The notes below the pieces were generated by a model, which saw only the letters and a list, made by a program, of their open reading frames with translations, did not search any database and was not told the origin of the DNA. A DNA stretch of 64,000 bases from Dehalococcoidia bacterium (GTDB lineage: Bacteria; Chloroflexota; Dehalococcoidia; Lucifugimonadales; JADFKI01), in contig OZ241992.1 in NCBI GenBank assembly GCA_965204445.1, positions 2,369,773-2,433,772 on the forward strand, in the 5' to 3' direction. Numbering within the stretch: the first letter of the stretch is position 1; every line of letters begins with the position of its first letter. The position numbers and the translations under genes were made by a program. Positions 14,525 through 52,157 of this stretch are shown here, piece after piece.

Positions 14525-14977
14525 TTATCCCAGGATTTCGCTAACATCCAACGCCGCATCCGGCAGCAGCGCCGGCGCTATGCGATCGCCGCGCGCATAC
14601 CGCCGCACAGCGCCATAGCCCGCCCCGACGGGATCGGACAGCCCGTCTATGTAATCCTCATCCAAGTTCACCAACCATAGTTCGGGAATGCCCGCCTCGG
14701 CGTACATCGGAGTCTTCACATCCCTATCGTACTCGACCGTGCTGTGCGAAACCTCTACTATCAGCAGCGCAATATCCGGCTCCGGCTCGGAGCGCTCGCT
14801 CAGACGGACGGGGTTCTGTACTCGGACGATTACGCGCCGCCCAAGCGTCTCCCTGAACAGCCTGTTTAGGGTATTCACACAACCCGCATGGTAGCTTCCG
14901 ATAGGCGCCATCTGAACAATCTCCCCGTCTATGAGCTCCACGCGGTCACGCGGGCTCAGAATGCCCGCCTCCGCCAT
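14525..14977 (-). CDS. Uma2-family (DUF820) putative endonuclease
   Basis: 'ELIDGEIVQMAP', 'EPDIALL' and 'VEVSHSTVEYDRDVKTPMYAEAGIPELWLVNL' match the Uma2 pattern. It is somewhat short at the N-terminus. Confidence 0.75.
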   Translation of the reverse strand: MAEAGILSPRDRVELIDGEIVQMAPIGSYHAGCVNTLNRLFRETLGRRVIVRVQNPVRLSERSEPEPDIALLIVEVSHSTVEYDRDVKTPMYAEAGIPELWLVNLDEDYIDGLSDPVGAGYGAVRRYARGDRIAPALLPDAALDVSEILG

Positions 14978-15125: not shown

Positions 15126-16676
15126 TTAGACGCCCAATGCGAGTTCGGGCTGCGGCGGCGTTAGGGTGCGCTCGATCGCAACCTTTCGTTCCCTCTCTAT
15201 TGGCAACCCGCGAACTAGCCCAATCAGCGCTTCGCTTTCTTTCGCGCTGGCAGTCTCACCGACTAGCAGCGCTTGGGTGCGCGTGATACGCCGCCGCGGC
15301 TCATCATCGAGCCATCCGTCCCGCCGATTGGCGCACGAGTCCGCTGATGGTGAGCGTAGCGCCCTTAGCGCCGTTGCAAGGCGAGCAGAGTATAACGCGG
15401 TTATCAATCGTGTTGGCTCCGCCGTCAGCGCGCGGCTGCATATGGTCTAGTTGCATAAATCGGATGTGAAGCTCACGCCCGCATCCCGCGCATACGCCGC
15501 CCTGCGCGGCATAGAGTATATCGCGCATATCGGCGTGGGATAGGCGCATACAGGGTTCGGATTTGCGCTGCCGCCAGTTGATGCTCGGCAGGCTAGCGCC
15601 CACATCGGCTTCGTCGTCGGTTCGCTAGGGGGGTACGGCGTGCGTGTACTGGGAACCAGAGTCGCCGCTGCAGTGTGGTGGCAGCGCCTTCCCACAAGTC
15701 GATGCCTATCCATTGGCGTTTTAGCGCTTCGGCGGCAACCAGGGTCGTGGCGCAGCCGCAGAATGGGTCAAGCACAATATCGCCTTCGTTGCTGCTTGCC
15801 TTGATGATGCGCTTGTACAAGGCAATCGGCTTTTGGGTCGGATAGCCGACTTTCTCATTTTCATTTGTCAGCGCCGATATATCGCTGAAGACATTCGTCA
15901 GCGCCACGCCTTTCGCATCGGATAGGTAGTTCTTGCGGCGGGGGATGCCATTATCATTGAAGTCAAGTAGCCCTTCCCGCTCATACCGCTCCATCGTTTC
16001 GCGCAGGAAGCGCCATTGGCGCGTGATGCCGTGAAACTCATAGACCATATTCGGGCAGTCGGCGTTGTTTTGGCGCGATGTCAGCATATAGCGCCCGCGC
16101 TCGTCTTCGTGGCGATATTGCGCGAGTTGAGCGTCCGTGATGGGCGCGTGAAGCCGATTGAAAGTCCAGTCTTTGCCTTTGGAGTACTGCAGGATGTTTT
16201 CGTAAGCCCGCCGCCACTTTCGGCGGGACAGGTTCTCAGCGGCGCGATGCCAGATGATTTCATTCTGGAAATTCGCCGCCCCGAACACGCTATCAAGCAG
16301 CGCCTTGATGTAGTGGGATGCCGTAGGGTCGCAATGCAGATACAGCGAACCCGTCGGTTTCAAAACCCGCCGCATCTCTATCACCCGCACGCCCAACCAG
16401 CACAGAAAAGCCGCCAAGTCGTCGCGCTTCTGCGTCCGCACCAGGTCGATCAACTCATAGAGCGCGGGCTGGTCGTCCTTAATGCTGTCAACCCAATCGG
16501 GATGGACGTCCTTTTCCCAACTCCAGCGGCGCCCCTGCCGCAAGGTTATCGGGCGTGGCGTGAAAGTCCCGCCCCTTGTTGAACGGCGGGTCGGTGGCGA
16601 TGAGGTCAACGCTTTCGGAGTTCATCCCGCGCAGTACGTCTAGGTTATCGTGTATGTACAGGGTTCGGTTATCCAT
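15126..16676 (-). pseudogene. decayed DNA methyltransferase (N4/N6 beta-class)-HNH endonuclease fusion
   Basis: The gene is split over at least three frames. ORF 16488-16676 has 'DLIATDPPF'. ORF 15593-16609 has 'LKPTGSLYLHCD' and 'IVLDPFCGCATT'. ORF 15304-15603 has the HNH motif 'LDHMQPRADGG...ILCSPCNGAKG'. ORF 15126-15407 carries the tail. Single-nt frameshifts lie near 16525 and 15330. It is collinear with the intact paralogue at 21776-23590. Confidence 0.85.
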
Positions 16677-16701: not shown

Positions 16702-17561
16702 TTACAGCGCTGCTACATCTTCCCAACTTGTGAATGGCCGCTCTACGCCCGCGGCTTCAGCCGGCCGCTTACCCTTCAGGCTTTCGTGGGGTCGGAAATA
16801 GTTGTAGTGCGTAACTAACCGGGCAACATAGGCTTGCCCGGTCTCCCGCGATTTTAAGCCTCTCAGCGTTTTATCCCTGTCCCGTATCGTTCCCTGAAGC
16901 CGCTCGCTCAGGTTGTTGTTGATTTCTGCCCGAATGCCTTTGCTGACGACGTGTTCAACCTTGTGAGTTGGAAACGCCTGCGGCATTGCGCGGCGGTAGG
17001 AAGGCAACCTGTCGGTTTTGATTTGTTCGGGCAGGCTTTGCGCCCGTTCACGCGCAAGCGCCAACGCCGTCGCCGCGGCGCGCGTTGTGCGCTCAGGGGA
17101 CAGGTATGCCGCCAGTAGGAAACGGCTATCGGAGTCCATCACATTGAAAAGCCAATAGTTCGTTCCTCCGACATTAACCACTACTTCATCGGCAACCCAA
17201 CGTCGCCTGTGGCAACCTTCATCGGCTTGAGCGCCGAGTCCGCCTTTGCGGTCAACTCGCGAACCCATTGGTAAATGCTGACTTGCGTAGTTTCCCGCCC
17301 AAAATACTGCTTCATATTTTGCGCCGCCTTGCGATAGGACACGCCGTCAAAGTACATATCCACCGCGGCGCCCTTTTCGTGGGGAGTGGCATGTCGGCGT
17401 TGTCCGTCCGTCGGCTTTATGGGCTTGCCGCGGTCGTCAAGTTGGACAAACCGAACCGTGCCAGATGAACGGCAGGTTTGGCAAGATTGCCCAGTTTTGC
17501 GCTTGCAGTTCGCCCCGCATAGATGCCCCATTGCGGTATTATATGCTAAACTACCCAGCAA
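16702..17561 (-). pseudogene. IS6-like DDE transposase interrupted by one frameshift
   Basis: The N-terminal zinc-finger/HTH part (ORF 17181-17561) ends '...KVATGD'. The DDE core (ORF 16702-17268) continues 'RWVADEVVVNVGG...KTDRLPSY...NNNLSERLQG' in the -1 frame. No slippery heptamer is present, so inactivation is more likely than recoding. Confidence 0.75.
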
Positions 17562-17582: not shown

Positions 17583-18418
17583 GGTATTCTTAGTGGTGAG
17601 TGGTATTGAGTTTGAGCTTGGCGCAGAAGACTAGCGCAAGCAGACTCACCAGCATCTCCACGCTCTTTGCGCAGCCTTTGTCCGACGAACTAACCGATTC
17701 AACTTCCCGCGCAGCATCGAATGCAATCCTTCATTCCAGTTCACCGTCCCGTACCTCCCAACCACATGCTTGTTGACCGGCAGCGCCCCGTACATTCCGT
17801 ATGCGTCGGTCTCGTAGCGCTCCGCATCCGGCAGACGCTCCAGCAACCGCAAGAAAGTGGCTTCGTCCCTGCCCCCCACCTCAAAGTCTATCCACCTGCT
17901 CACGTCGCGCTCTTCCACCACCGCTGTCCACACCCACAGATCGTTGCGCTTTTCTTCTCTTCTAGCGCCCAAGTATGTCCACATTTCGTCAAGCGCTATC
18001 GTCAACGCAGCGATTGTCGCAGCCCGCCCGCTTGCGCGCCACGCGCTTATTGCGCGCATCCGTTCAAGCGCTATCGCCCCCCTTTTTTGACCCAGCCACT
18101 CACCGATGCAGCGCTTGCGCCCACTACGCGCGCCGCCGCCGATATGCTCGCGCCCTCTATGCGCATCTGAACCGCCTGCCGCCTGGTCTGCTCCGGGAAG
18201 CGCGGCCGCGCTGCGTCCGCCGTGTACTTCCGCTTGCAATCCCCGCACTTGTACACTTGCCTGCCGCGTGTGTGTCCGTCTTTGGGCATCCAATTGGAGC
18301 CGCAGTGGCGGCATCTAACATCGTGTCGATATGACCGCTCGCGCGCCATTAGATCGCATCCTAGATAGTAGTGGTCTGAGTGCCATTATATCTAATGCCA
18401 CTCGATTTTGTGAATACC
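17583..18418. mobile_element. IS1-family insertion sequence
   Basis: Imperfect terminal inverted repeats: GGTATTCTTAGTGGTGAGTGGTATT (17583-17607) against the reverse complement of 18394-18418, GGTATTCACAAAATCGAGTGGCATT (17/25). The internal gene organisation is InsA/InsB-like. Confidence 0.75.
17646..18349 (-). CDS. IS1-family transposase InsAB' (InsA 18071-18349; fusion by -1 frameshift)
   Basis: InsA-like zinc finger 'CRHCGSNWMPKDG...YKCGDCKRKY' plus an HTH. The slippery motif TCAAAAAAGGG (T-run at 18083-18088 on the plus strand) lies exactly where the -1 frame 'KRGAIALERMR...DEMWTY...' opens. Confidence 0.8.
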
Positions 18419-19395: not shown

Positions 19396-20430
19396 TTACA
19401 GGTTGAACTGGGGCTCCATGTAGTCGTTCACCTTGTTGTATATCTGCAAGCGCCCGCGCTGCGTGTCTGCGACCAATAGGCGAGACTTGGCGGCGTCGAA
19501 GGTTACGGCTGTGGGCATTGCGAAGCGCCATTCGGGTTCGAGCGTGTACACGCGGCGGCGCGCCTTAATTACATCCACGTTGGCGTCCACCTGCTCTTGG
19601 TGCCACTTGGCGAGCTGCTGCGCGTCCCCGACGAGGCTGGCGAGGAATCTGCCGTCTGCAGCGAATACCTGCACGCGGTCGTTGCCCCAATCGCATACAT
19701 ACACATCGCCGTCCGGGTCGACCGCGACGTCGCTGGGGCGGTTGAGTTGTCCCCTGCCTTTGCCGTATTTGCCGAATGCCGCGACGAAATCGCCGTCTGC
19801 GTCAAATTTCTGGACGCGGTGATTCTTGTGGTCGGCGACATATACGCAGTCGTCGGCGTCGCAGGCGATGCCCCACGGGGCGTTGAATTCGCCTTCGTCC
19901 GATCCGAATCCTCCGAACTGCGATATGTACTCGCCGTCCCTGTTGAACTTCTGGACGCGGTGGTTCAGGCTGTCCACAACATAGACGTCGTCGTTGGAGT
20001 CGAGCGCGATGCCAGAAGGGCGGTTCAGCTCGCCATCGCCGTCGCCGGCTGTGCCCCATACGCCAAGCAGTTCGCCGTCCTTGTCGAATACGCTGACGCG
20101 GTTCATCCACTCGTCGGTGATGTACAGGTTTTCGTCGGAGTCGAGCGCAAGCCCGGCGGGCCATATGAGCTCGCCCTCTGCGTCGCCGTACTTGCTTATG
20201 CGGCCGAGGAACTCTTCGTCGTACGGCGCGGTTGGCACGGTGAACTTGTTGAGCTGGGCTGCGGTGGCGGTCTTGTTCCAGGGGACATCCAGTATCTGTT
20301 CGTACTGGCGGCTCAGCACATAGACCATATCGCCTTCGCCCACGGCGACATTTATCGGCTGGGGCATGTACAGCCCCCCGACGGCGTGGCTGAAATCAAA
20401 GGTGCGGCCTGCCGCTACGGTGGTCAGCAT
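19396..20430 (-). CDS. NHL-repeat beta-propeller protein (copy 1)
   Basis: About six repeats of 'G.F..P.GIA.D....VYV.D..N.RVQ.F'. The start is set at the internal ATG 20430 ('MLTTVAAGR'), preceded by GAGAGAGG. The longer ORF would run into the upstream gene. Confidence 0.85.
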   Translation of the reverse strand: MLTTVAAGRTFDFSHAVGGLYMPQPINVAVGEGDMVYVLSRQYEQILDVPWNKTATAAQLNKFTVPTAPYDEEFLGRISKYGDAEGELIWPAGLALDSDENLYITDEWMNRVSVFDKDGELLGVWGTAGDGDGELNRPSGIALDSNDDVYVVDSLNHRVQKFNRDGEYISQFGGFGSDEGEFNAPWGIACDADDCVYVADHKNHRVQKFDADGDFVAAFGKYGKGRGQLNRPSDVAVDPDGDVYVCDWGNDRVQVFAADGRFLASLVGDAQQLAKWHQEQVDANVDVIKARRRVYTLEPEWRFAMPTAVTFDAAKSRLLVADTQRGRLQIYNKVNDYMEPQFNL

Positions 20431-20551
20431 AGTTTTGCCTCTCTCTGTGCATGATTGGGTATGTATAGGCGGCGGGTTCGGCAATTCTGTCGAACGCCAG
20501 CGCTGCCCCCGCCGAGATTGTCGGAAGCGGCGGGGACAGAAAGGCTTTCGG

Positions 20552-21685
20552 TTAGTTTGCGATGAAGCCAACCTTCTCGAAGTCGCCGCCCACGATGGGC
20601 TTTGCGTCCATCTTCATCCAGTCTTCCACGATGGTGGAATAGACGCTGCGAAAGTCTAGGGAAGGCACAACATCGCCCTGCTCTAGGTCTTCAGCGCGCA
20701 GGGACGGGTAGTCGTTGTACTGCCCGCCGTTGACCTGGTCGCCTATGACAAGCACAGCCCCCGCCGCGCCGTGGTCGGTGCCGGAGCCGTTGTCGTGCGT
20801 GCGCCTGCCGAACTCGGAGAACAGCAGCATTATGACGTTGTCGGAGGCGTCGTGCGCGCGCAGGTCGTCGAAGAAGTCGTTGACGGCGGTGGAGAGGTCG
20901 TCCCACAGCGCCGAAAGCATATTGGGCTGGCCGGCGTGCGAGTCGAAGCTTCCGTGGTCGCAGTAGAACACGCGCGTTCCCAAATCCGCCATATGCACCT
21001 GCGCTATGCCCTTGAGCTTCTTGGCGAGCGTGGTGTCGGCGTACTCCACATCGGAGGAGTAGCGTTCCGGCGCAACCTTCAGGATGTCCGCGCCCTGCAG
21101 GGCGTCCAAACCCGTCTGTCCGAGAAATTCCATCACCGGGCCTCTGCCGATTGCCTGTCCGTATAGGCGCGAGAAGCGGTTCAGTATCTTTTGGCGCTGC
21201 TCTTCGGCGCTGATGCCGGGCATCAAGCCGTAGTTGTTCAGGTCTTCCACGCACGCCACCGGCACGCCCGGCACCGCCATAGCGCGGAACATGCTGGGGC
21301 CGAAGCTTACGCCGGTTACCACATTCTCTTTGCGCGGGTCGATCTCTTGGATGACCTTGCCGAGCCAGCCCTCTGTGCCTACGTCGTCCGGCTCGCAGGT
21401 GTGCCAGATGTCCATAGAGCGAAAGTGAGAGCGCGGCGAGTTTTCGTAGCCCACGCCGTTGATGATGGCGACGTTGCCCTGATTGTACATATCGCGGATT
21501 GCGCCCATCTGCGGATGCAGCCCTATCTTGTCGTCAAGGTGAAGCACCTGCTCTTGGGGAATGCCGACCGTGGGGCGGTTGTCGTAGTAGAGTTCGTCGT
21601 TGTACGGGATGACGGTGTTGAGATAGTCGTTGCCGCCCGAAAGCTGAACAACAACCACAACCGGATCTTTCTGCGCGGTGGTCAT
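20552..21685 (-). CDS. DUF1501-family (sulfatase/phosphatase-fold) protein (copy 1)
   Basis: 'VVVQLSGGNDYLN', 'RSHFRSMDIWHT' and 'FSEFGRRTHDNGSGTDHG' are DUF1501 hallmarks. No Tat or signal peptide is visible. GGAAGGAG RBS. Confidence 0.8.
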   Translation of the reverse strand: MTTAQKDPVVVVVQLSGGNDYLNTVIPYNDELYYDNRPTVGIPQEQVLHLDDKIGLHPQMGAIRDMYNQGNVAIINGVGYENSPRSHFRSMDIWHTCEPDDVGTEGWLGKVIQEIDPRKENVVTGVSFGPSMFRAMAVPGVPVACVEDLNNYGLMPGISAEEQRQKILNRFSRLYGQAIGRGPVMEFLGQTGLDALQGADILKVAPERYSSDVEYADTTLAKKLKGIAQVHMADLGTRVFYCDHGSFDSHAGQPNMLSALWDDLSTAVNDFFDDLRAHDASDNVIMLLFSEFGRRTHDNGSGTDHGAAGAVLVIGDQVNGGQYNDYPSLRAEDLEQGDVVPSLDFRSVYSTIVEDWMKMDAKPIVGGDFEKVGFIAN

Positions 21686-21775
21686 TTTGCTGCTCCTTCC
21701 CAGTTTTAATTTTTGGTGTATCTATCGGATGTAGAAATCGGATTGGCGTTTGATTGATTGCGTTGAAAGCGCGGC

Positions 21776-23590
21776 TTAATCGTCCATGGATGGCTGATAG
21801 CCGCGTCGAAACAGGTAGTCCATATGAAAGCGATGCGCTCGGTCTTCCATCTCCGCCAAATCAACAAGCGCGCCCATCGTGTCGACCAGCATTTCGCCGG
21901 CGTCCGCTATCTGAACGCGGTAGTCGGCGAGGTGGATGCGCTGATTGCCTTTGCGGATGTTGTGCGTGGGGCAGAGCGGCGCGCGGTTCCATATCTGATT
22001 GGAGCCGCGCTTGGACTTAGGATCCACATGGTCAAGATGGAAGTTGTTGGTAGTTTCCACAATGCTGCCGTCCGGGCGGCGGTTGGCGAAGCCGCAGCAC
22101 CACGCCATATAGCCCGACCACTCCAACAGCGTTTCAAGCATTGCCGCATTTGGAATATCGCTTGCCGGCACTTTGAACTCGCGCTCCGGCAATGCGAACT
22201 CTTTCGGGGCGGCGTCGACGATGGGCGTTGCGCGGACGGGCAATTCGTCGGGGCCGTGAACGGTTACCGTCTTGTCTTTGGTGAGCGCCGCCTGTCCGGT
22301 AACTTCGTCTTCGCAGTCGAGAACGATGAGCCGGGGCTTGTTGAACTGGCGCTTGAACACCGTCCACGCGCGCGGGTTGAAGTCGCACGCCACCCAGCGG
22401 CGGTTGAGGCGCTCGGCGGCGACGCCAGCGTATGCGCAGCCCGCAAAGCAGTCTAGCACTACATCGCCTTCATTCGTGCTTGCCTGGATGATGCGTTCCG
22501 CAAGCGCAACAGGCTTTTGCGTGGGGTAGCCGGTGCGCTCTATCGCGCGCGAACCAACCGGCTTTATATCGTCCCACAGGTTGCCCGGAACCTGCCCAAG
22601 GTTTGCGTCCAAGTAGCGCTTTAAGCCGGGCACGCCCCCCTCTTCCGGATGATGAATCAATCCCGCCGCATCCAGTGCGTCAAGTCTCGCTATTACCCCT
22701 TGGATGCTCTTGTATCCCGGGATTACATTAGCCTCTATCCAATCGGCGTAGTTCCCGGTTAGAGGGATTGCCCAGTGGCGTCCACTTCGCGCCGGAATAT
22801 GACCTTTCCACGGCTGCCCGCTTTCACCTCGCGACGTCTCTGCGCCGGTTAAATCGCCTACTCGATACCTGCCGCGCTCATCTTGGTAGCGATAGAACCT
22901 TCTGACATATTCCTCGCTCAGCGGCACCCTAACTGCGTCCGTGTTTATATTATCCTTGCCGCTGTAGAATTGTATGAAGTCTATGACGTTGCCAAATCGC
23001 CGCGCGTCGTTGTGGGCGGATGTGCGCCGCCACACGATTTTGTCGCGAGATTTGTCCTCGCCAAAGATAGCGTCCAGCAGCAAATGCAGATATGAGTCCG
23101 CGGTATGATCGCAGTGCAGATACAGGCTGCCGGTCGGCTTCAGAACCCTGTGAATTTCAATCAGCCGAATAGCCATGTAGCACAAGTACGCCGCCATGCC
23201 GTCGCTGTGGACAATCCGAGTTGCGTCTATCAGGCTGTATATGGCGGGATAGTCCGTTTCTAGGCTTTCGACCCAGTCTTCGTGAATGTCCGCTTCCCAG
23301 GACCATATATCGGTGTAGCCGCCGCGCGTTATGCCTTCCGGCCAAGTTAGCCCCTTGGCGTCGGCTTCTTGGGCGGTGTTTATGCCCCAGCTTGAGAGCA
23401 GACGCCGCTCTATCGCCAGCTCCGAATCGGTGAGCGGGGGCCTTATCCTATCACCAGTGAAAGTTTCGTTCTTGGCAAACGGCGGGTCGATGCACACAAG
23501 GTCGATGCACTCGTCGTTGAGCGCGCGCAGAAACGCTAGGTTGTCTGCGATATAGACGCCTCTGTTGACTGCATTGAAAGCGTTGGGCAT
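21776..23590 (-). CDS. DNA methyltransferase (N4/N6, beta-class)-HNH endonuclease fusion, intact
   Basis: 604 aa. Motif IV 'DLVCIDPPF', 'LKPTGSLYLHCD', motif I 'VVLDCFAGCAYAGVAA' and C-terminal HNH 'HLDHVDPKSKRGSNQIWNRAPLCPTHNIRKGN'. Confidence 0.85.
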   Translation of the reverse strand: MPNAFNAVNRGVYIADNLAFLRALNDECIDLVCIDPPFAKNETFTGDRIRPPLTDSELAIERRLLSSWGINTAQEADAKGLTWPEGITRGGYTDIWSWEADIHEDWVESLETDYPAIYSLIDATRIVHSDGMAAYLCYMAIRLIEIHRVLKPTGSLYLHCDHTADSYLHLLLDAIFGEDKSRDKIVWRRTSAHNDARRFGNVIDFIQFYSGKDNINTDAVRVPLSEEYVRRFYRYQDERGRYRVGDLTGAETSRGESGQPWKGHIPARSGRHWAIPLTGNYADWIEANVIPGYKSIQGVIARLDALDAAGLIHHPEEGGVPGLKRYLDANLGQVPGNLWDDIKPVGSRAIERTGYPTQKPVALAERIIQASTNEGDVVLDCFAGCAYAGVAAERLNRRWVACDFNPRAWTVFKRQFNKPRLIVLDCEDEVTGQAALTKDKTVTVHGPDELPVRATPIVDAAPKEFALPEREFKVPASDIPNAAMLETLLEWSGYMAWCCGFANRRPDGSIVETTNNFHLDHVDPKSKRGSNQIWNRAPLCPTHNIRKGNQRIHLADYRVQIADAGEMLVDTMGALVDLAEMEDRAHRFHMDYLFRRGYQPSMDD

Positions 23591-23699
23591 TGCCGTTGTC
23601 TCTGTAAGATAAGTTGGCTTGCAGGGAAGTTCTTGCGCTATCCAATCATAGGAATAGCCGAGAACTCCCCCGCAAGTGTCCGTCTAGTGCGCCGCGGCG

Positions 23700-25097
23700 C
23701 TATGCGTACTGATAGTCCCGGAGCGATACGATGAGCTGCAGCATTTCGCTGATCCGCATCGCGGCGAAGTCGGCATCGCCCCAAGTCAGGCTGCAGTCTA
23801 TGGCGGCGTGGTCTATAAGTTCCTGGCGCGTCTTGGGGTCGAGGTCGAGGGGACCCATCAGGTCGAGGCAGGTGTCCACGAACTCGTCGGGCGCAAGCTC
23901 GCCGGCGTCCTGGACTTTGCCCACGATTGTCTGCACGCCCGGCAGCGAGGTGTCGCCCACCAGGTCGGCCACGAAGTTGATGCGGCGCATAAGCGAGCCG
24001 CTGTTGATCCACTCGCGCCCGGTGTGCCAGCCCTCTACACTGGGCGGGTTCAGCACTTCCTGCCCCATGTATCCCATCTGCCTGCCGAGGTTGCCGATGC
24101 CGGGCGCGGGGAATTCGTGTCCGCCCACGAAGCGCAGCGTGTTGACCACAACCTCGACCGGGCTCTTGATGCGGGTGAAGCGCGCCTCTTTGAAGAAGTC
24201 GGAGTTGAACAGCACGCGCAGCACGGAGCGCATATCGTATTCGGACTCCACGAAGGCGTCCGCGAGCGTCTGAATGGCGTCGGGATCGCCGGGCGCGACG
24301 CGCTGCCATGCGGGCACCTGCGCTTCGTCCGCTACGAAGAAGTTGTACAGGTGGCGCGCCACGAAGCGCGATGTGGCGGGCTGACTGCAGATGATGTCTA
24401 TGATGTCTTCGCCGTTGAAGTTGCCCGTGTAGCCGAGGAACGACTTTTCGCCTTCGTCGTGGTCGTCGTCGCGGTACTCGAACGACCAGTCGAAGCGTCC
24501 CATCGGAAAGCGCGGGAGCTTAGGCGTAATCGTCCAGCCGGTAAAGGCGCGCGAACACTCGAACACATCGGTTTCGGTGTAGTTGCCCACGCCCATGCTG
24601 AACAGCTCCAGCAGTTCGCGGCCCCAGTTTTCGTTGGGCGCGTCGGCGTGATTTTCGTTGTTGTCGAGCCAGTAGATCATCGCGGGGTTTTGGGCGACTT
24701 CCATCAGTATTCGCTTGTAGCTGCCCATGCCCTTTTCGCGCAGCATGTCCACCATATCCAGGATTTCGTCCCAGTGGTCGACCTTGGATACGCCGGTGGC
24801 GAATATGCCGTGCCAGAAGATAGCCATCTTTTCTTGGAGCGGCGCTTTGGTGTTGACCATATGGTAAAGCCAAGTGGCGTGGCCGGTGCCTTGTATGGTG
24901 CCGGGCTTCCACGACCACGGGTGATAGCGCAGAAGCTCATACCTGTCGACCGGGGGCTGCGCTTCGGGGTTCAGCAGTTCCTCTACGGTGGCTTCGTAGC
25001 CATTGGCGACGTACGCCTCCAGTTCGTCGTGCGTCGCTCCGAATCCGGCGCGGCGCATCAGGTGCGCCATCAGCGCAATGTCATCTCGGTGGGACAT
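23700..25097 (-). CDS. DUF1800-family protein (copy 1)
   Basis: 'LMRRAGFGAT' and 'MAIFWHGIFATG' are DUF1800 hallmarks. The ATG at 25097 lies 7 nt after AGGAGG. Confidence 0.8.
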   Translation of the reverse strand: MSHRDDIALMAHLMRRAGFGATHDELEAYVANGYEATVEELLNPEAQPPVDRYELLRYHPWSWKPGTIQGTGHATWLYHMVNTKAPLQEKMAIFWHGIFATGVSKVDHWDEILDMVDMLREKGMGSYKRILMEVAQNPAMIYWLDNNENHADAPNENWGRELLELFSMGVGNYTETDVFECSRAFTGWTITPKLPRFPMGRFDWSFEYRDDDHDEGEKSFLGYTGNFNGEDIIDIICSQPATSRFVARHLYNFFVADEAQVPAWQRVAPGDPDAIQTLADAFVESEYDMRSVLRVLFNSDFFKEARFTRIKSPVEVVVNTLRFVGGHEFPAPGIGNLGRQMGYMGQEVLNPPSVEGWHTGREWINSGSLMRRINFVADLVGDTSLPGVQTIVGKVQDAGELAPDEFVDTCLDLMGPLDLDPKTRQELIDHAAIDCSLTWGDADFAAMRISEMLQLIVSLRDYQYA

Positions 25098-25395
25098 CAA
25101 TCTGCCTCCTATCTCTATCGTTCACGCCCAATCCAGGGCAGCCTCAGTAGCATATACCACCTAGCGATATGCCCGATATAATCAGCAAATCGCCGGCACA
25201 GAATTAGCCGAATCGTATTTTGTCAAGTATATGAACCAGCGGCGTCTATGTCAAACGCCTCAGCGGGCGCAAAGCGGGGCGGTTTTCGGCGAACCAAACG
25301 GCGGGCCGCTGTCTCAATTATGGCAGATTAGCGGCGCAGATCGACGCAGTTAGTAAGCGCGCGGAAGCGGCGTCCGTTAGAGGGGATGAACGCAA

Positions 25396-25492: not shown

Positions 25493-27853
25493 TTAGTTAG
25501 AGACGCTTGTCGTAGAGATGTCTAGCGTCAGCATGAAATTGCCGACGGTTTCGATGTGGTAGGTGGTAGCCTCTATGGTGTAGCTGCCCGCCTGCAGTTG
25601 CTCGGTTATTCGAGAGTCGCCCCGGTTGACGATGGAGCCGGAGTTGCCTACGCCCTCTAGCAGGTAGAGGTAGGTGTCCGCCACATCGTCGGACGAGATG
25701 CTGACGGTTACGCTTGACGCGGCCTCAAGCGTGAATGTGTAGAAGCGCGCATAGCGGGTTCCCGCTTTTGCGGTTGCGGGCGTCTTATCCGATAGGCAAT
25801 CGGCGTTCCATGTGCCGGTTAGCCAACCCAATCCGGTCTTGCGAATGCAGCCGGGCGCCAATGTCGACGCTGATGCGCGCGTGGGAGTTGCCGTAGGAAT
25901 GGTCGTAGACGTCGCCGTGGGCGTGGTTTCCAGCACGGTTACCGGCGTATTCGTCGGCGTGGGCGTATGGGTTGGCGTTGCCGTCGGGATGGTTCCTCCA
26001 AGTTCCGCCACTCTATCGGTCAGTGCATCGACGAGCCCGCGCAACGATTCGATAAGCCTATTCAGCGTTCCCATATCTTGGAACGTTCCCGCCCGGTCGC
26101 GCAACGCCCCGACTTGCTCTTCAAACTCGTCTAGCCCACCGCCTATGGGCGTGGACACGCCGGTTGCGGTTGGCGTGAGCGTAGGGGCGAGTTCGTCCGT
26201 GATGACCGTGCTCGTAGGCGTTGGGATAGATTCGCTTGTGGACGAAACGCTTGTGGACGTGGGCGTATGAGTTGCCGTTGCTGTGGGCGCAGGTTCGTCT
26301 GTTGCCGAAACACTCGTGGAAGTCGGCGTAAGCGTGGGTTCGCCTGTGGCTGAAACGCTCGTTGCCGTGGGCGTGTGAGTCGGTGTTGAAGTTGTTGTGG
26401 GAGCAGGCGTTGACGATCCGCTCACACCGAATAGGTGTACCGTTACATAGATTACGTCCGTACCCAATTGGTCATCTGCATCGTTGGTTACTCGGACTTC
26501 CACCCTATGGAAGGGTCTCGACCATGTATTCAGCCTGGCATCTACGGACAGAACGCCCGAAGAAGAAATGGCGAACACGCGCGGCTCGCCTATAGCGGCG
26601 CGGAGCCTAAACTTAATGGCGTCTCCGTCCGGATCGCAGGCATCGAAATCCTCCAACACCGTGCGCGTTAGCGAATCTCCGTCTATCCAATAAACCGGAT
26701 CTCTTCCTCTAGAGAAGGTAGTGCGTGGTCGGGCTGTGGCGCAGTCTGTGTCATCATAGACGAAGTAAGGCGGACTGTTGACAAGCGTGGGCGTATGAGT
26801 AGGCTCAGGCGTAGGCGTAAGAGTTGGGATTGGCGTTTCTATGGGCGCAGATGTGGCCGGCGGCGTTGACTCGCCAAATTGGTTTTTGCCCCAGCATACT
26901 ACAGCGCCATCCGCGCGAAGACCGCACTTATGGCTCCCGCCACCGCTTATGGATGCGAAGGTTTCACCCGCAGGCGGCGTTGTTTGACCATAATCGTTAA
27001 GCCCCCAGCATACTGCGACTCCGTCATTTCGCAATCCGCAAGTATGCCGAGCGCCGGCGCTTATAGACGCGAAGGTTTCACCCGCAGGCGGCGTTGACTG
27101 ACCGAATCCGTCATAACCCCAACATACCGCAGCGCCATCCGCGCGAAGACCGCAGGCATGACGATGTCCGGCGCTTATGGATGCGAAGGTTTCATCCGCA
27201 GGAGGCGTTGACTGACCGAACCTGTTATCGCCCCAGCATACTGCGGCGCCGTCATTTCGCAGTCCGCAGGTATAAGACGTATTAGCGCTTATAGACGCGA
27301 ATGCGCCCGCAGGAGGCGTTGCCTCGCCATGTATGTTACGCCCTCCCCAGCATACTGCCGCGCCATCCGCGCGAAGACCGCAAGTATGAGAGTAACCGAC
27401 ACTTGCAACGCTTGCAACGCTTATAGACGCGAATGCGCCCGTAGGGGACGTTGGAGGCGCTGACCTATTGTACTTGGCATCACCCCAGCACACTGCCGCA
27501 CCATCCGCGCGAATACCGCAGGCGTGGCGGAATCCAGTGCTAATAGATGTGAAGACACCTGACGGCGGAGAAATCTGATCATGCGCGTTAAGTCCCCAGC
27601 ATACTGCAGCGCCATCCGTGCGAATACCGCAGGTGAGACCGTCTCCGGCGCTTACGGCGCTGAATGTCATTGCGCGCGGTGTGCTTGTGGATGTGGGCGT
27701 GTTGTCGACGCCCTGCTGCGCGCTTGCGTCGTCCGCATTTGCGAGCAGGGTGAACAGCAGCAACGCCACCACTGTGAGGGCGGTGAGGAAGTAGAGCGCG
27801 GATTTAGAACCTATGAACGGGGGGGGGGGGGGGGTAAATCGTATGTTCGGCAT
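25493..27853 (-). CDS. secreted RCC1-repeat protein with beta-sandwich (cadherin-like) domain, Thr/Pro linkers and C-terminal PPC-like domain
   Basis: 786 aa. Signal/TM segment 'ALYFLTALTVVALLLFTLLANA'. About seven repeats of 'H.CGLRADGAAVCWG.N.FGQSTPP'. T/P/S-rich linkers. The C-terminus 'YARFYTFTLEAASSVTVSISSDD..TYLYLL' is pre-peptidase-C-terminal-like. Confidence 0.8.
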   Translation of the reverse strand: MPNIRFTPPPPPFIGSKSALYFLTALTVVALLLFTLLANADDASAQQGVDNTPTSTSTPRAMTFSAVSAGDGLTCGIRTDGAAVCWGLNAHDQISPPSGVFTSISTGFRHACGIRADGAAVCWGDAKYNRSAPPTSPTGAFASISVASVASVGYSHTCGLRADGAAVCWGGRNIHGEATPPAGAFASISANTSYTCGLRNDGAAVCWGDNRFGQSTPPADETFASISAGHRHACGLRADGAAVCWGYDGFGQSTPPAGETFASISAGARHTCGLRNDGVAVCWGLNDYGQTTPPAGETFASISGGGSHKCGLRADGAVVCWGKNQFGESTPPATSAPIETPIPTLTPTPEPTHTPTLVNSPPYFVYDDTDCATARPRTTFSRGRDPVYWIDGDSLTRTVLEDFDACDPDGDAIKFRLRAAIGEPRVFAISSSGVLSVDARLNTWSRPFHRVEVRVTNDADDQLGTDVIYVTVHLFGVSGSSTPAPTTTSTPTHTPTATSVSATGEPTLTPTSTSVSATDEPAPTATATHTPTSTSVSSTSESIPTPTSTVITDELAPTLTPTATGVSTPIGGGLDEFEEQVGALRDRAGTFQDMGTLNRLIESLRGLVDALTDRVAELGGTIPTATPTHTPTPTNTPVTVLETTPTATSTTIPTATPTRASASTLAPGCIRKTGLGWLTGTWNADCLSDKTPATAKAGTRYARFYTFTLEAASSVTVSISSDDVADTYLYLLEGVGNSGSIVNRGDSRITEQLQAGSYTIEATTYHIETVGNFMLTLDISTTSVSN
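26850..27670 (-). repeat. about 114-120-bp tandem coding repeats (RCC1 blades)
   Basis: The recurrent DNA words GCGCCATCCGCGCGAAGACCGCA and CCCCAGCATACTGC are seen six to seven times. Confidence 0.8.
27819..27834 (-). repeat. 16-nt homopolymer (poly-C on the coding strand) in codons 7-12 of the RCC1-repeat gene
   Basis: The plus strand carries G16. It encodes 'TPPPPPF' between the ATG and the signal peptide. Confidence 0.95.
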
Positions 27854-49906: not shown

Positions 49907-50935
49907 TCAGGTTACTTCAAGCGTAACGTTTCGCAGCGGCTCTGCGTACTGCGTGCGGTCGAGCGGGATGGCTTCTTTTTGGTATATCTGCACGCGGTAG
50001 GACTCGTAGTCGGGGATGAACAGGCGGAATTCGCTGTCTATCCTGACGGAGCGCGGGCGGCGCAGGCGCTTTTCCTGCTCCAAATCGCCCATCTCGCGCA
50101 GGCGGTTGGGGACGGCGTTGGTGAGCATGTATGTGCGCGCCACGCGGGACAGGGTGGCGTCGCCGCTGAAGCTCCAGATGTACTGCCCTTCGGCGTTGAA
50201 CATCTGCACGCGGTTGTTGCCCCAATCGGCTACATAGATGTCCCCGTGCGCGTCCACCGCAACCCCGGTCGGGCGGTCGAACTGGCCGGGGCCGCTGCCC
50301 GGTTCGCCTATGACGCGCTTCACTTCGCCGTCGGGCGAGAATATCTGCACGCGGTTGTTGCCCCAATCGGCTACATAGACATCGCCCAGCTCATCTACAT
50401 GGACGCCCCAGGGCAGGTTGAACTGCCCCGCGGCATTGCCGTGCGCGCCGAATCCGCCTAGGTATTCGCCGTCGGCGGTGTAGCGCTGGACCCTGTGATT
50501 GCGCGAGTCCACCACCATTAGGTTGCCGTCAGCATCGAACGCAATGCCGTTGGGGGCGTCGAACTCGCCGTCGCCGTCGCCGTGTGTCCCCCATTTGGAT
50601 ACGAATTCGCCGTCGGGACTGAAGCGCGTTATTCTGTGCGTGGCTTCGTCGCTGACGAAAATGCTGCCTTCGGCGTCGGTGATTATCTGCACGGGCCAGA
50701 CGAACTGTCCGTCGCCGGCGCCGTTGCCGCCGATGCTCTTGAGGTCGTCGGTCAGCGCGTCGGCGTCGTTCACGGGCCAGACGCGTATGCCGGAGGCGCC
50801 TTCGGCGCGCATAAGTATGAGCGCATCGCCGTTGTTGGAGAAGGCGATGTCCGCCGGGAAGTTGGAAACGCGCCGCATTCCCAGCGTCCGCAGGTAGGGA
50901 TAGCCCGCCCTCAGCAGTCCGTATGGCCTACTCAT
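49907..50935 (-). CDS. NHL-repeat beta-propeller protein (copy 2)
   Basis: 342 aa with repeats such as 'GEFDAPNGIAFDADGNLMVVDSRNHRVQRY'. AGGAGAAAG RBS. Confidence 0.85.
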   Translation of the reverse strand: MSRPYGLLRAGYPYLRTLGMRRVSNFPADIAFSNNGDALILMRAEGASGIRVWPVNDADALTDDLKSIGGNGAGDGQFVWPVQIITDAEGSIFVSDEATHRITRFSPDGEFVSKWGTHGDGDGEFDAPNGIAFDADGNLMVVDSRNHRVQRYTADGEYLGGFGAHGNAAGQFNLPWGVHVDELGDVYVADWGNNRVQIFSPDGEVKRVIGEPGSGPGQFDRPTGVAVDAHGDIYVADWGNNRVQMFNAEGQYIWSFSGDATLSRVARTYMLTNAVPNRLREMGDLEQEKRLRRPRSVRIDSEFRLFIPDYESYRVQIYQKEAIPLDRTQYAEPLRNVTLEVT

Positions 50936-50983
50936 AGTCTTTCTCCTGTGGTCTGATTTTGTCCCGTCCGCCCGTCTATTCGG

Positions 50984-52120
50984 CTAGTTGACGAAGGGCT
51001 GAATTTGCTCATACTCGCCCTTGACGATGGGCTTGGCGTCCACATCCAGAACCTGCTCCAGCAGCGTGCCGTATATGCACCTGAAGTCTATGGTGTGCTT
51101 CAGGTCTTCGCCGTGTTCCCAATCGGCGGGATTGAGCGATGGGTATTCGCTGTACAGGCCGCCGTTGATGTTCTTGCCGAATATGTACGCCCCGCCGCCG
51201 GAACCGTGGTCAGTGCCGCTGCCGTTGTCGCGCATGCGCCGCCCGAACTCGGTGAACACGAACACGGTTACATCTTCGGCGGCGTCATGCTCTTCCATAT
51301 CGTCTAGGAAGTCGGATATTGCGCCGGAGAGTTCGTTCATCAGTTTGGGGTGCGAGGGCATTTCGTTGGCGTGCGTATCGTAGCCGCCGTGGCTTGTGTA
51401 AAAGATGCGCGTGCCGAGGTCGGCGAGGTGAATGCGCGCCACATCGCGCATATTCTTGGCTATCTGATTGTCGGCGTACTCTACCTGCGATTGGTAGTTG
51501 TCGGCGACGTCGGCGAGCATATCAGCGCCTTTCAGCACATCCAAGCCCGTCTGACCGATGTATTCGGCGACGGGGCCTGCGCCAATCGCTTGAGCGTACA
51601 GTCCCTTGAACGCCGCAAGCGATCTGTCGCGCAGATTTTCCTGCTCCATGCGCGTCATTACACCGTAGCCTTCCAGGTCGCCAACGGAGGTTACCGGCAC
51701 GCCGGCGACCGCCATTGCGCGAGGCAGTCCCATGCCGATGTTGACGCCGGTAAGCACATTCTCGGAGTTGGGGTCAAGTTCGCGAACCGCCTGTCCCAGC
51801 CAGCCTTCGTTGCCCACGCGGTCGGGTTCGGCGGTGTGCCAGATGTCCATTCCGCGGAAGTGGGAGCGGTTGGAGTTGGGATAGCCGATGCCCTGCACAA
51901 TCGCCATCCTGCCTTCGTCGTAGAGGCGCTTGAAGGGCGCTGCGTTGCCGTTAATCGCCAGGTCGTCGTTGATGGGCAGCACATCCTCTTGGCGCAGCAC
52001 GACCTTCTTGCGCGCGTCGTAGTAGTGCGGGTTGTTGTACGGCACGATGGTGTTCATAAAGTCGTTGCCGCCGGTGAGCTGCACGACTACCAGAGTCTTC
52101 CGCTTGCTTTTGGCACTCAT
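50984..52120 (-). CDS. DUF1501-family protein (copy 2)
   Basis: 'VVVQLTGGNDFMN', 'RSHFRGMDIWHT' and 'FTEFGRRMRDNGSGTDHG'. The start at 52120 gives an N-terminus collinear with copy 1. Upstream ATGs at 52132 and 52177 are also possible. Confidence 0.8.
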   Translation of the reverse strand: MSAKSKRKTLVVVQLTGGNDFMNTIVPYNNPHYYDARKKVVLRQEDVLPINDDLAINGNAAPFKRLYDEGRMAIVQGIGYPNSNRSHFRGMDIWHTAEPDRVGNEGWLGQAVRELDPNSENVLTGVNIGMGLPRAMAVAGVPVTSVGDLEGYGVMTRMEQENLRDRSLAAFKGLYAQAIGAGPVAEYIGQTGLDVLKGADMLADVADNYQSQVEYADNQIAKNMRDVARIHLADLGTRIFYTSHGGYDTHANEMPSHPKLMNELSGAISDFLDDMEEHDAAEDVTVFVFTEFGRRMRDNGSGTDHGSGGGAYIFGKNINGGLYSEYPSLNPADWEHGEDLKHTIDFRCIYGTLLEQVLDVDAKPIVKGEYEQIQPFVN

Positions 52121-52157
52121 AGTATCCCCCATCTTGTCTTTCGGGTTTCGGAGTAGG

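Follow-up and report, generated by a model that had tools for sequence, protein, structure and literature searches.

[quoted passage not shown] The gene sits in an operon unrelated to either a methylase or a nuclease. We consider it probable that its product is a self-contained restriction–modification (R-M) enzyme made of a single polypeptide, the specificity of which diversifies by the exchange of a recognition cassette. The intact architecture of the protein, its insertion between two conserved genes, the replacement of the target-recognition domain (TRD) at a fixed locus and the lack of recurrent partner genes form the basis of this view.

Organization of the locus

The fusion gene belongs to a module of four genes on the minus strand, laid out as follows.

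25226..25254, minus strand: promoter-like site TTGACA-17-TATACT (11/12 matches), ~125 nt upstream of DUF1800, a candidate operon promoter
23700..25100, minus strand: DUF1800 gene (466 aa, PF08811, E 6e-102), upstream flank of the insertion
23591..23699, minus strand: upstream spacer of 109 nt with a stem-loop (arms 23661-23676 and 23618-23633)
21776..23590, minus strand: methyltransferase-HNH fusion gene, a single ORF of 604 aa between DUF1800 and DUF1501
21686..21775, minus strand: downstream spacer of 90 nt, which keeps the DUF1501 ribosome-binding region (GGGAAGGAGCAGCAAAATG)
20552..21685, minus strand: DUF1501 gene (377 aa, PF07394), downstream flank of the insertion
19396..20571, minus strand: NHL-repeat beta-propeller gene, last gene of the conserved module

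A check of the ORFs in the 21686-23699 region reproduced the positions and the minus strand given in the preliminary description of this DNA, and the gap between DUF1800 and DUF1501 does extend over 21686-23699 (2,014 bp). The second module that had been pointed out in the same window is also there and is free of the insert (DUF1800, 52158-53558; DUF1501, 50984-52177; NHL, 49907-50935). Its proteins are merely 42–50% identical to those of the first module, and because of this low identity we take it to be an old paralogue of the interrupted one.

The promoter-like site upstream of DUF1800 is a candidate by its match to the consensus, and the region holds no more such sites than shuffled sequences do. 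Between the four module genes we found no promoter-like or terminator-like sites. Expression of the fusion gene would probably occur by read-through from the promoter of the host operon, downstream of the conserved stem-loop. A nuclease embedded in a housekeeping-type operon and constitutively co-transcribed with it, as this arrangement suggests, would be unusual for R-M systems and in that respect speaks against such a system.

The upstream spacer folds with −44.2 kcal/mol (z = −5.0), a value equalled by 0/200 shuffles, and the downstream spacer is unstructured (z = −0.4). A hairpin is thus present upstream of the gene, as previously noticed, but it consists of a 16-bp stem located at 23618-23676 and not at 23643-23690. 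The stem is kept in 9/9 of the loci where the gene occupies the DUF1800–DUF1501 slot, despite differing loops, and three of its pairs show compensatory changes. We considered this hairpin as a possible part of a mobile unit and rejected it, the GCGGGG...CCCCGC stem being confined to the slot lineage and missing upstream of dispersed copies of the gene. Among orthologous sites that lack the gene, a strong hairpin of another kind is found at L090, and none at two further sites.

Domain architecture of the fusion protein

The gene can be divided into four segments, all read from the minus strand.

23063..23590, minus strand: N-terminal methyltransferase scaffold (residues 1-176), with motif IV DPPF at 23477-23488
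22541..23062, minus strand: TRD cassette (residues about 177-350, ~520 bp), the sole segment replaced among slot relatives
22150..22540, minus strand: C-terminal methyltransferase scaffold and linker, with the ERTGYPTQKP motif and FAGCAY at 22430-22447
21950..22102, minus strand: HNH nuclease core (residues 497-547), with W-C-C-G, F-H-L-D-H, N-R-A-P-x-C and H-N-x-x-K

An intact methyltransferase and a C-terminal HNH domain in one protein had been read from the translation, and profile searches bear this out. In Pfam, residues 29-409 match PF01555 (N6_N4_Mtase) with 117.4 bits against a cut-off of 26.7 (E 1e-33). Motif IV (DPPF, residues 35-38) precedes motif I (FAGCAY, 382-387) with the variable region between them, and this order, IV-TRD-I, is that of the beta class. 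D35, P36, P37 and F38 are invariant in an alignment of 40 family sequences, as is FAGCAY. The structure model of the methyltransferase part has a pLDDT of ~80-96, and Foldseek relates its fold to M.RsrI, M.MboIIA, M.BceJIV and EcoP15I Mod with E values of 1e-13 to 3e-17. The top matches are Type III Mod subunits, EcoP15I (4zcf, E 3e-17) and 6k0w, followed by M.RsrI, M.BceJIV and M.MboIIA. The presence of D rather than S in DPPF, together with these nearest structures, suggests N6-methyladenine as the likely product. PADLOC and NCBIfam recognise the methyltransferase part only, through generic methyltransferase models. The C-terminal scaffold is followed by a linker of ~70 residues modelled with low confidence (pLDDT < 50 at residues 423-438 and 460-477), in which the motifs VHGPxELP and ERxFKVPAS are conserved.

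The HNH region scores 20.8 bits with PF01844 in the full protein, just below the cut-off of 21.4, while the isolated C-terminal fragment passes it with 22.6 bits; the corresponding regions of relatives reach 22–50 bits. W497, C498, C499, G500, H518, D520, H521, N535, C540, H543, N544 and K547 are invariant in the alignment of 40 sequences, and D520, H521, N535, N544, C498, C499, C540 and H543 in 40 to 79 sequences; this latter set comprises the D-H general base, the structural N, the metal-binding H/N and the zinc ligands of an HNH nuclease. The catalytic residues, the loss of which would have contradicted the preliminary description, are therefore present and invariant. A canonical HNH is still found in distant members of the family (41–48% identity), and the C-terminal module is essentially restricted to the C-terminus of 500–610-aa proteins, or to fragments. 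Structural models of the core, where a beta-beta-alpha-metal fold was looked for, are poorly confident (pLDDT ~40-65), both in the full-length protein and in a stand-alone model from the 79-sequence alignment that was moderate at best; a Foldseek search with the latter (core pLDDT 40-65) gave no meaningful match. There are weak matches to IscB (NCBIfam, E 0.004; PDB 9nvu, E 0.04), a PDB sequence search returned only weak matches to IscB/Cas9 motifs, and the similarity to IscB/Cas9 spans just ~26-40 residues.

An old insertion under purifying selection

Comparison of synteny confirms that the fusion gene was inserted into an ancestral DUF1800–DUF1501 layout. Orthologous empty sites are found at L090, L085, L086/87 and L088/89, where DUF1501 is 77–92% and DUF1800 78–82% identical to the genes of the window and the two genes are only 16-116 nt apart. 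The slot is occupied in eight relatives belonging to two clades (L001-L003, L005, L007-L010), with identities of 90–98% for DUF1800 and 94–100% for DUF1501. Presence or absence of the gene tracks phylogeny (the slot is empty in L085-L090) and is uniform within lineages. The gene, retained by the closest relatives and absent from the empty orthologous sites, is not a universal member of the DUF1800–DUF1501 cluster; universal presence is what would have told against the earlier reading.

The divergence of the scaffold has kept pace with that of the flanking genes (94–95% and about 82% nucleotide identity), and this co-divergence argues that the slot was filled once. The insertion is thus old and single, the gene having entered the DUF1800/DUF1501 spacer in the common ancestor of the two Dehalococcoidia clades. 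At a dS of about 1, dN/dS is 0.04-0.15 in every segment of the gene (0.04-0.11 for the whole gene, 0.04-0.09 for the HNH), values that point to strong, long-term purifying selection, HNH included. The idea that the gene colonises operon junctions finds no support: the slot was filled in one narrow lineage, by a single ancestral event, the other DUF1800–DUF1501 modules inspected (the second one of the window, L017 and L080) are uninterrupted, and ~70 other members of the family lie in unrelated contexts. Insertion of R-M genes into operon-like gene clusters has a precedent (PMC2853133).

We give almost no credence to the opposite view, according to which the gene would be no insert but an ancestral, functional member of a DUF1800-DUF1501-NHL pathway. 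Such a role could be suspected from its common strand with the neighbours, the short spacers, the absence of internal promoter and terminator signals and the occupancy of the slot in 8/8 closest relatives. However, orthologous modules with DUF1501 proteins as close as 77–92% do without the gene, as does the paralogous module of the window, its ~70 homologues are located elsewhere, and a methyltransferase-nuclease has no plausible biochemical role beside DUF1800, DUF1501 and NHL proteins. The fusion gene has no functional link to DUF1800/DUF1501 and, for genome annotation, is an ordinary matter.

A cassette exchanged at a fixed locus

Comparison with the slot relatives delimits the TRD cassette by sharp breakpoints, at about 23064/23030 and 22540/22541; the DNA homology of the N-terminal scaffold to relatives is unbroken down to position 23064 or 23030. 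Nucleotide identity between TRD alleles is 43–57%, compared with 89–97% for the scaffolds within clade alpha, and three unrelated alleles were found in the slot. Type 1 is carried by the window, L001, the second copy of L002 and the first copy of L007, type 2 by L003 and L008, and type 3 by L005, L009 and L010. Two of these three predate the alpha-beta clade split, since alpha-beta identity is 75–82% for the TRDs and about 80% for the scaffolds. Over the whole family, the median identity of TRDs is 28% and that of scaffolds 58%. The TRD has no match in Pfam and is modelled with confidence (pLDDT about 80-96).

Tandem gene pairs with different TRDs exist in L002, L007, L034 and L045. 'TRD-less' copies hinted at by tblastn in L045 (fragments of a similar kind are seen in L034) turned out there to be a tandem of two intact ORFs, each with a different short TRD. 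In Helicobacter pylori, the TRDs of Type III mod genes move by recombination in conserved motifs (PMC3467074). By a similar route, homologous recombination in the scaffolds flanking the TRD probably diversifies the specificity of the present family, the outcome being replacement of an allele, formation of a tandem pair or re-collapse to a single gene.

Dispersed copies and a decayed relative

The family is present at 2-4 copies per genome in Dehalococcoidia metagenome-assembled genomes, several of them sponge-derived. One of these is SAR202 bin87 from the sponge Aplysina, for which an enrichment in R-M systems has been reported (PMC5649159). Clustering of the ORFs flanking ~76 dispersed loci revealed no recurrent neighbour; the clusters were made up only of copies of the gene, of shadow ORFs antisense to it and of widespread paralogue families (e.g. 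luciferase-like monooxygenases). The gene is thus self-contained, as had been supposed. A scan of IMG/VR with the family alignment detected no viral relatives. Five of the ~70 dispersed loci have a DUF1800/DUF1501 module within 6 kb, which we judge compatible with chance because such modules are frequent (two in the 64-kb window).

Another methyltransferase+HNH gene of the window lies next to transposase ORFs.

15126..16676, minus strand: pseudogene from another methyltransferase+HNH subfamily, disrupted by two frameshifts or more
16702-17268: IS6-like transposase ORF adjoining the pseudogene
17646-18349: IS1-like transposase ORF adjoining the pseudogene

It had been called a decayed paralogue of the fusion gene. 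The decay is real, but the product, which aligns to residues 96-419 of the 604-aa protein with 36% identity and is nearest to L058.1, identifies a distant relative from another subfamily and not a copy of the fusion gene. The HNH ORF of the pseudogene scores 48 bits.

Copies of the family at different loci have in common a leader of 100-150 nt, including pairs from the same genome (L013/L025 and L016/L017), and tandem copies carry repeated leaders and trailers. The shared leader shows that the unit which moves or duplicates is larger than the coding sequence. In agreement with the preliminary description, a search around the fusion gene for terminal inverted repeats and a target duplication gave nothing convincing, only chance-level repeats and one marginal 18-nt direct repeat located at both ends of the coding sequence. 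The unit contains no transposase.

These features recall a homing-type selfish gene, in which the HNH would cut a specific chromosomal target in genomes lacking the gene, repair would copy the gene in and the methyltransferase would shield the carrier. Location between two conserved genes, as for free-standing homing endonuclease genes, a multi-copy dispersed family, the leader shared between loci, the repeated leader and trailer of tandem copies, the marginal 18-nt repeat and the absence of transposase and terminal repeats all fit such a scenario, which was one of the two left open by the preliminary description, the other being R-M or defence. Nevertheless, we find homing improbable and poorly supported. 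The slot was filled once and not recurrently, other inspected modules are uninterrupted, and lasting purifying selection on all parts of the gene is unlike the usual cycle of invasion and decay of homing genes. Moreover, three unrelated TRDs occur in one slot, which leaves no way to link the recognition specificity to the slot site. Exchange of the recognition domain at a fixed locus is the opposite of what site-specific homing needs, and for this reason we favour R-M or defence.

A combination of the two is conceivable, although we rate its chances as slim. A self-propagating R-M gene would restrict unmodified DNA, breaks made by its own HNH together with the leader and trailer would seed new copies, and the tandem pairs would serve as a store of cassettes for switching specificity. 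If true, such a gene would unite features of a restriction enzyme, a homing gene and a shufflon, and would work with neither transposase nor invertase.

A role outside defence also has to be weighed. The protein could be an epigenetic or housekeeping methyltransferase, TRD switching altering the methylome and gene expression, and the HNH could be a DNA-binding zinc module or a nickase of repair or recombination. Stable vertical inheritance in a metabolic operon under purifying selection is consistent with this, as are a base composition that is not atypical, a location outside defence islands and a match to defence models limited to the methyltransferase part; TRD switching in H. pylori methyltransferases has likewise been interpreted as epigenetic diversification or diversification of the methylome (PMC3467074 and related papers). 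We nonetheless hold this explanation to be unlikely. Across the family the catalytic residues of the HNH (D-H, N and H-N) do not vary, and distant members preserve them in a second, canonical form of the domain, a degree of conservation not expected of a purely structural domain. Members as distant as 41% identity still have the methyltransferase+HNH architecture, and the occurrence in a genome of several copies with different TRDs, beside pseudogenised ones, resembles the turnover of R-M systems.

A probable single-chain R-M enzyme

In the R-M model that we prefer, the N-terminal two-thirds of the protein would act as a beta-class methyltransferase of the Type III Mod type, its swappable central TRD reading a short DNA motif. 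The flexible linker of ~70 residues would tether the HNH nuclease, which is expected to cleave unmethylated DNA that contains this motif; the host chromosome, methylated by the enzyme itself, would be protected. Points that speak against the model are the low-confidence structure of the HNH core and its empty fold search, the PADLOC match to the methyltransferase part only, the lack of a characterised enzyme of this layout in the literature, the embedding in a housekeeping-type operon and the leader shared by copies at different loci.

If this model is correct, the family provides a natural panel of exchangeable recognition cassettes on a near-constant scaffold, useful for enzyme discovery and the engineering of specificity. 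The fusion gene would also be a concrete molecular example of what lies behind the R-M enrichment reported in sponge symbionts. The slot, with its different TRD alleles, two of them older than the clade split, makes a tractable case for the study of long-term polymorphism of specificity.

Comparison with known systems

The insertion resembles the mobile R-M units described by Furuta, Abe and Kobayashi (2010, PMC2853133) in that an R-M-type gene lies between the genes of a conserved cluster, with intact flanks and without a transposase. It differs from them in that no long target duplication was found here and the insertion is an ancient one that has become fixed in a lineage, as opposed to a polymorphism among strains.

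The HNH is comparable to those of IscB/Cas9-type and zinc-ribbon HNH nucleases. It has the pattern H-x-D-H-(I/V)-x-P-x-S-x-x-G-S-N-x-I-x-N-x-A-x-L-C-P and a final N, as in D-H...N...N variants. Unlike IscB and Cas9, the fusion protein has no RuvC or RNA-guided parts, and its first pair of zinc ligands is an unusual adjacent C-C.

With the Type III Mod subunits (EcoP15I Mod, 4zcf; Helicobacter Mod, 6k0w), which are its best structural matches and also match in sequence, the protein shares a beta-class PF01555 domain, conserved N- and C-terminal scaffolds around a variable central TRD, and the exchange of TRD alleles via recombination in conserved flanking motifs known from H. pylori (PMC3467074). 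In contrast to Type III R-M systems, no Res subunit (SF2 helicase and PD-(D/E)XK nuclease) is found among the neighbours, and an HNH is fused to the Mod-like C-terminus instead, an arrangement from which one would not expect ATP-dependent communication between sites.

Single-chain enzymes of Types IIC, IIG and IIL, such as the MmeI family (PMC2731913), likewise combine methylation, recognition and nuclease in one chain, with a single TRD presumably serving both activities, so that changes in the TRD alter specificity, and need no partner gene. TstI, BcgI and TspDTI are further single-polypeptide R-M enzymes, at least as they are cited in PMC12707154. We found in the literature no characterised R-M enzyme that joins a beta-class methyltransferase to a C-terminal HNH, and hence no direct precedent for the way in which such an enzyme would avoid self-cleavage. 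The characterised IIC/IIG/IIL examples have an N-terminal PD-(D/E)XK nuclease and a gamma-class methyltransferase; in the fusion protein the order is reversed, the methyltransferase is of the beta class and the HNH is C-terminal, on a long linker. Should its activity be as proposed, it would represent an uncharacterised single-chain R-M architecture, a Type III Mod-like methyltransferase with a tethered C-terminal HNH, able to work without Res and without any separate endonuclease.

Genomic context and insertion of the gene

The methyltransferase-HNH gene, which encodes the 604-aa fusion, is the second of four consecutive minus-strand genes in the window:

23700-25100, minus strand: DUF1800 gene
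21776-23590, minus strand: methyltransferase-HNH ORF (604 aa)
20552-21685, minus strand: DUF1501 gene
19396-20571, minus strand: NHL-repeat gene

A second DUF1800-DUF1501-NHL module (49907-53558) is without the insert, and the two modules share only 42-50% protein identity. Gene layout, fusion and insert-free second module were all recovered at the coordinates given in the preliminary description. The base composition of the methyltransferase-HNH gene is not atypical. The window also encodes, at 25493-27853 on the minus strand, a 786-aa protein that combines seven RCC1_2 repeats (E 1.5e-50) with long linkers rich in Thr and Pro; its C-terminus gives a weak match to the PPC domain. Eukaryote-like repeat proteins of this kind are often noted in host-associated bacteria.

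The four closest homologues of the 604-aa protein (99%, 81%, 78% and 66% identity) all sit between DUF1800 and DUF1501, on metagenomic contigs with differing outer flanks. A scan in which each species was represented by one genome yielded 204 relatives, nearly all Dehalococcoidia MAGs; 78 loci were kept and their contexts sorted by tblastn with the flanking proteins of the window. The DUF1800-DUF1501 slot is occupied in eight of these loci, which form two clades: alpha (L001, L003, L008, L009), with flanking DUF1800 and DUF1501 97-100% identical to those of the window, and beta (L002, L005, L007, L010), with flanks 90-95% identical. Some 70 other family members (at most 61% identity) lie in unrelated contexts. 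Just outside the two clades, DUF1800 and DUF1501 are directly adjacent at every DUF1501 homologue examined.

Empty sites (modules without the methyltransferase-HNH gene)
L090: DUF1501 92% identical, 108-nt spacer
L085: DUF1501 84% identical, 116-nt spacer
L086/L087: DUF1501 80% identical, 16-nt spacer
L088/L089: DUF1501 77% identical, 89-nt spacer, downstream lactamase_B synteny kept

The DUF1501 protein common to L088/L089 (P0239) has an identical copy annotated in a SAR202 genome. The two genes are adjacent in these outgroup relatives, so the methyltransferase-HNH gene has indeed been inserted into the spacer between them, as had been proposed. This took place a single time, in the ancestor shared by clades alpha and beta. 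The ribosome-binding region of DUF1501 is still present in the downstream spacer. The empty sites contradict the idea that the protein works in a pathway with DUF1800 and DUF1501. The initial interpretation thus stands as regards an insertion, an intact fusion and, probably, a compact restriction-modification (R-M) enzyme; the idea of a habitual coloniser of operon junctions does not, as the insert is ancient and lineage-fixed.

Five dispersed family members (L017, L059, L068, L080, L082) lie no more than 6 kb from a DUF1800/DUF1501 module. At L082 the module is immediately upstream, with the NHL end about 150 nt before the gene. Such modules are frequent, so we judged these cases compatible with chance.

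Co-divergence and exchange of the target-recognition domain

Aligned with the syntenic loci by blastn, the module shows unbroken homology from DUF1800 through the spacer and over the first 530 bp of the gene. Homology restarts at window position 22540 and takes in the 3' part of the gene, the downstream spacer, DUF1501 and NHL. All these stretches are equally similar, about 94-95% identical in clade alpha and about 82% in clade beta. Nei-Gojobori dN/dS is 0.02-0.12 in the comparison with L001; with the type 1 copies of clade beta, where dS is about 1, it is 0.07-0.15. The HNH segment gives 0.04-0.09 within those comparisons. The values are low across the gene, HNH segment included: the whole fusion has long been maintained as a functional gene.

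The single break in homology is a cassette of about 520 bp (22541-23062, residues ~177-350). In the family alignment this segment forms the variable centre, equivalent to the target-recognition domain (TRD); three unrelated TRD alleles occupy the slot.

TRD alleles found in the slot
Type 1: window, L001, L002 copy 2, L007 copy 1
Type 2: L003, L008
Type 3 (about 50 residues shorter): L009, L005, L010, L002 copy 1, L007 copy 2

Types 1 and 3 are each present in both clades, and their nucleotide identity between alpha and beta (75-77% and 79-82%, respectively) is the same as that of the scaffolds on either side (about 80%), so both alleles are older than the clade split. Two histories would account for this: a tandem pair in the ancestor, from which copies were lost differentially, or a polymorphism that has long persisted. 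Types 1 and 3 form tandem pairs in both L002 and L007, with the order reversed between them. L005 appears to have arisen by recombination that collapsed an L002-like pair: N-terminal scaffold and TRD share 94% identity with copy 1, the C-terminal scaffold 96% with copy 2. Further tandem pairs with near-identical scaffolds and different TRDs occur at L045 and L034, the latter also containing internal fragments.

Tandem pairs or arrays of intact genes
L002: 6266-9836
L007: 6001-9573
L045: 5227-8481
L034: 5531-10312

These arrangements suggest recombination-driven shuffling of specificity.

Spacers and expression

A 16-bp stem-loop (23618-23676) precedes the methyltransferase-HNH gene, in a spacer that folds at -44.2 kcal/mol (z = -5.0). 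The stem is kept in nine of nine slot loci with three compensatory pairs, its G-U pairs fit the sense strand, and it is absent from the dispersed family copies searched; it may temper or process the transcript. The empty spacer of L090 (33-140) has its own strong hairpin, unrelated to that of the window (-33.3 kcal/mol, z = -3.5), and the NHL gene there is tandemly duplicated. Upstream of DUF1800 there is a promoter-like site close to consensus, and nothing resembling a promoter or terminator was found within the module, which points weakly to read-through as the probable mode of expression of the gene.

An 18-nt direct repeat (23565-23582 and 21754-21771, 16/18 identical) joins the first codons of the CDS to sequence 5 nt past the stop codon, at a similarity that exceeds chance marginally (z 4-5, a score reached by one of 300 shuffles). 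Three alpha-clade relatives retain only 12 nt of it. Either a lost tandem copy or the insertion itself may have left this repeat behind. Upstream of family members in several genomes (L022, L049, L069, L071, L046 and L060), a short sequence of some 25-30 nt is found repeatedly and in either orientation, perhaps a REP or MITE-like element of these bacteria.

Duplication or mobility, and spread of the family

At several pairs of loci (L013/L025, L016/L017, L011/L084 and others), some of them in one genome, the copies share a conserved 5' leader that covers some 100-150 nt before the start codon, which implies that the duplicating or moving unit is larger than the CDS. Tandem copies repeat both leader and trailer. 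Judged from these sequences, some duplication or mobility mechanism does exist for the family. The same leaders and trailers could speak for a site-specific homing gene; that reading is disfavoured by a slot filled once and held by three unrelated TRDs, and by the remaining DUF1800-DUF1501 modules inspected, all uninterrupted. The IMG/VR viral contigs searched contained no family member, and no partner gene recurred beside the approximately 76 dispersed loci. The family is expanded in Dehalococcoidia (2-4 copies per genome); carriers include SAR202 bin87, which comes from the sponge Aplysina, and for that setting R-M enrichment has been reported (PMC5649159).

The window holds a second copy beside transposase genes:

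15126-16676: methyltransferase-HNH pseudogene, at least two frameshifts, closest to L058.1, HNH ORF 48 bits
16702-17268 and 17646-18349: IS6-like DDE transposase ORF (PF13610), and IS1-like transposase and HTH ORF

This copy is decayed, as originally described, and belongs to a different subfamily. Relatives such as L003 and L005 carry sulfatase and lactamase_B genes at this position downstream of NHL, so the block looks like a later arrival. On its far side lies a Uma2-family putative restriction endonuclease-like gene (14525-14977, minus strand; PF05685, E 4.5e-23); the syntenic contig L001 has a Uma2 gene as well.

Domain architecture and relation to known systems

Residues 29-409 match PF01555 (N6_N4_Mtase, E 1e-33), and motif IV DPPF (35-38) precedes motif I FAGCAY (382-387), the beta-class order. 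For the N-terminal two-thirds, the best matches in both sequence and fold are Type III Mod subunits (EcoP15I Mod 4zcf, with a Foldseek E of 3e-17, and 6k0w), followed by the small beta-class adenine methyltransferases M.RsrI, M.BceJIV, M.MboIIA and CcrM. The model is confident over the methyltransferase (pLDDT ~80-96); the C-terminal 195 residues comprise a poorly modelled linker, then the HNH core. For the HNH motif the profile score is 20.8 bits when the whole protein is searched and 22.6 bits when the fragment is taken alone (cut-off 21.4). Its invariant residues (W497, C498, C499, G500, H518, D520, H521, N535, C540, H543, N544, K547) identify a predicted D-H...N...N-type core with zinc ligands. 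Distant members (41-48% identity) carry instead a canonical C-x-x-C...L-D-H...N...C-x-x-C-N HNH (27-50 bits), so the architecture is conserved across at least three subfamilies. Among 1.84 billion representative proteins, the C-terminal module was found in only 110 clusters, always C-terminal in a 500-610-aa protein or as a fragment.

In sequence the protein shows the hallmarks of both a beta-class methyltransferase and an HNH nuclease, and it is probably a one-polypeptide R-M enzyme. Recognition, methylation and cleavage would all reside in a single chain, the TRD setting specificity and the tethered HNH replacing the Res subunit or N-terminal PD-(D/E)XK domain. A purely epigenetic or repair role is less likely, leaving the invariant nuclease catalytic residues unexplained. 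Searches confined to full-text papers retrieved no description of this fusion. The value of the system lies in an uncharacterised enzyme architecture and a clean natural TRD-cassette system, rather than in its operon context.

The protein resembles Type III Mod in joining a methyltransferase to a TRD, but falls outside the Type III definition because it has no Res, and it departs from the canonical Type IIG/IIL layout. Only the broad single-polypeptide idea of Type IIC, with recognition, methylation and cleavage in one chain, fits (PMC12707154). Insertion of R-M genes into operon-like clusters, as seen here, has precedent (PMC2853133), and the slot gene recalls the Type III mod genes of H. pylori, in which TRDs are replaced at a fixed locus via recombination in conserved flanking motifs (PMC3467074).
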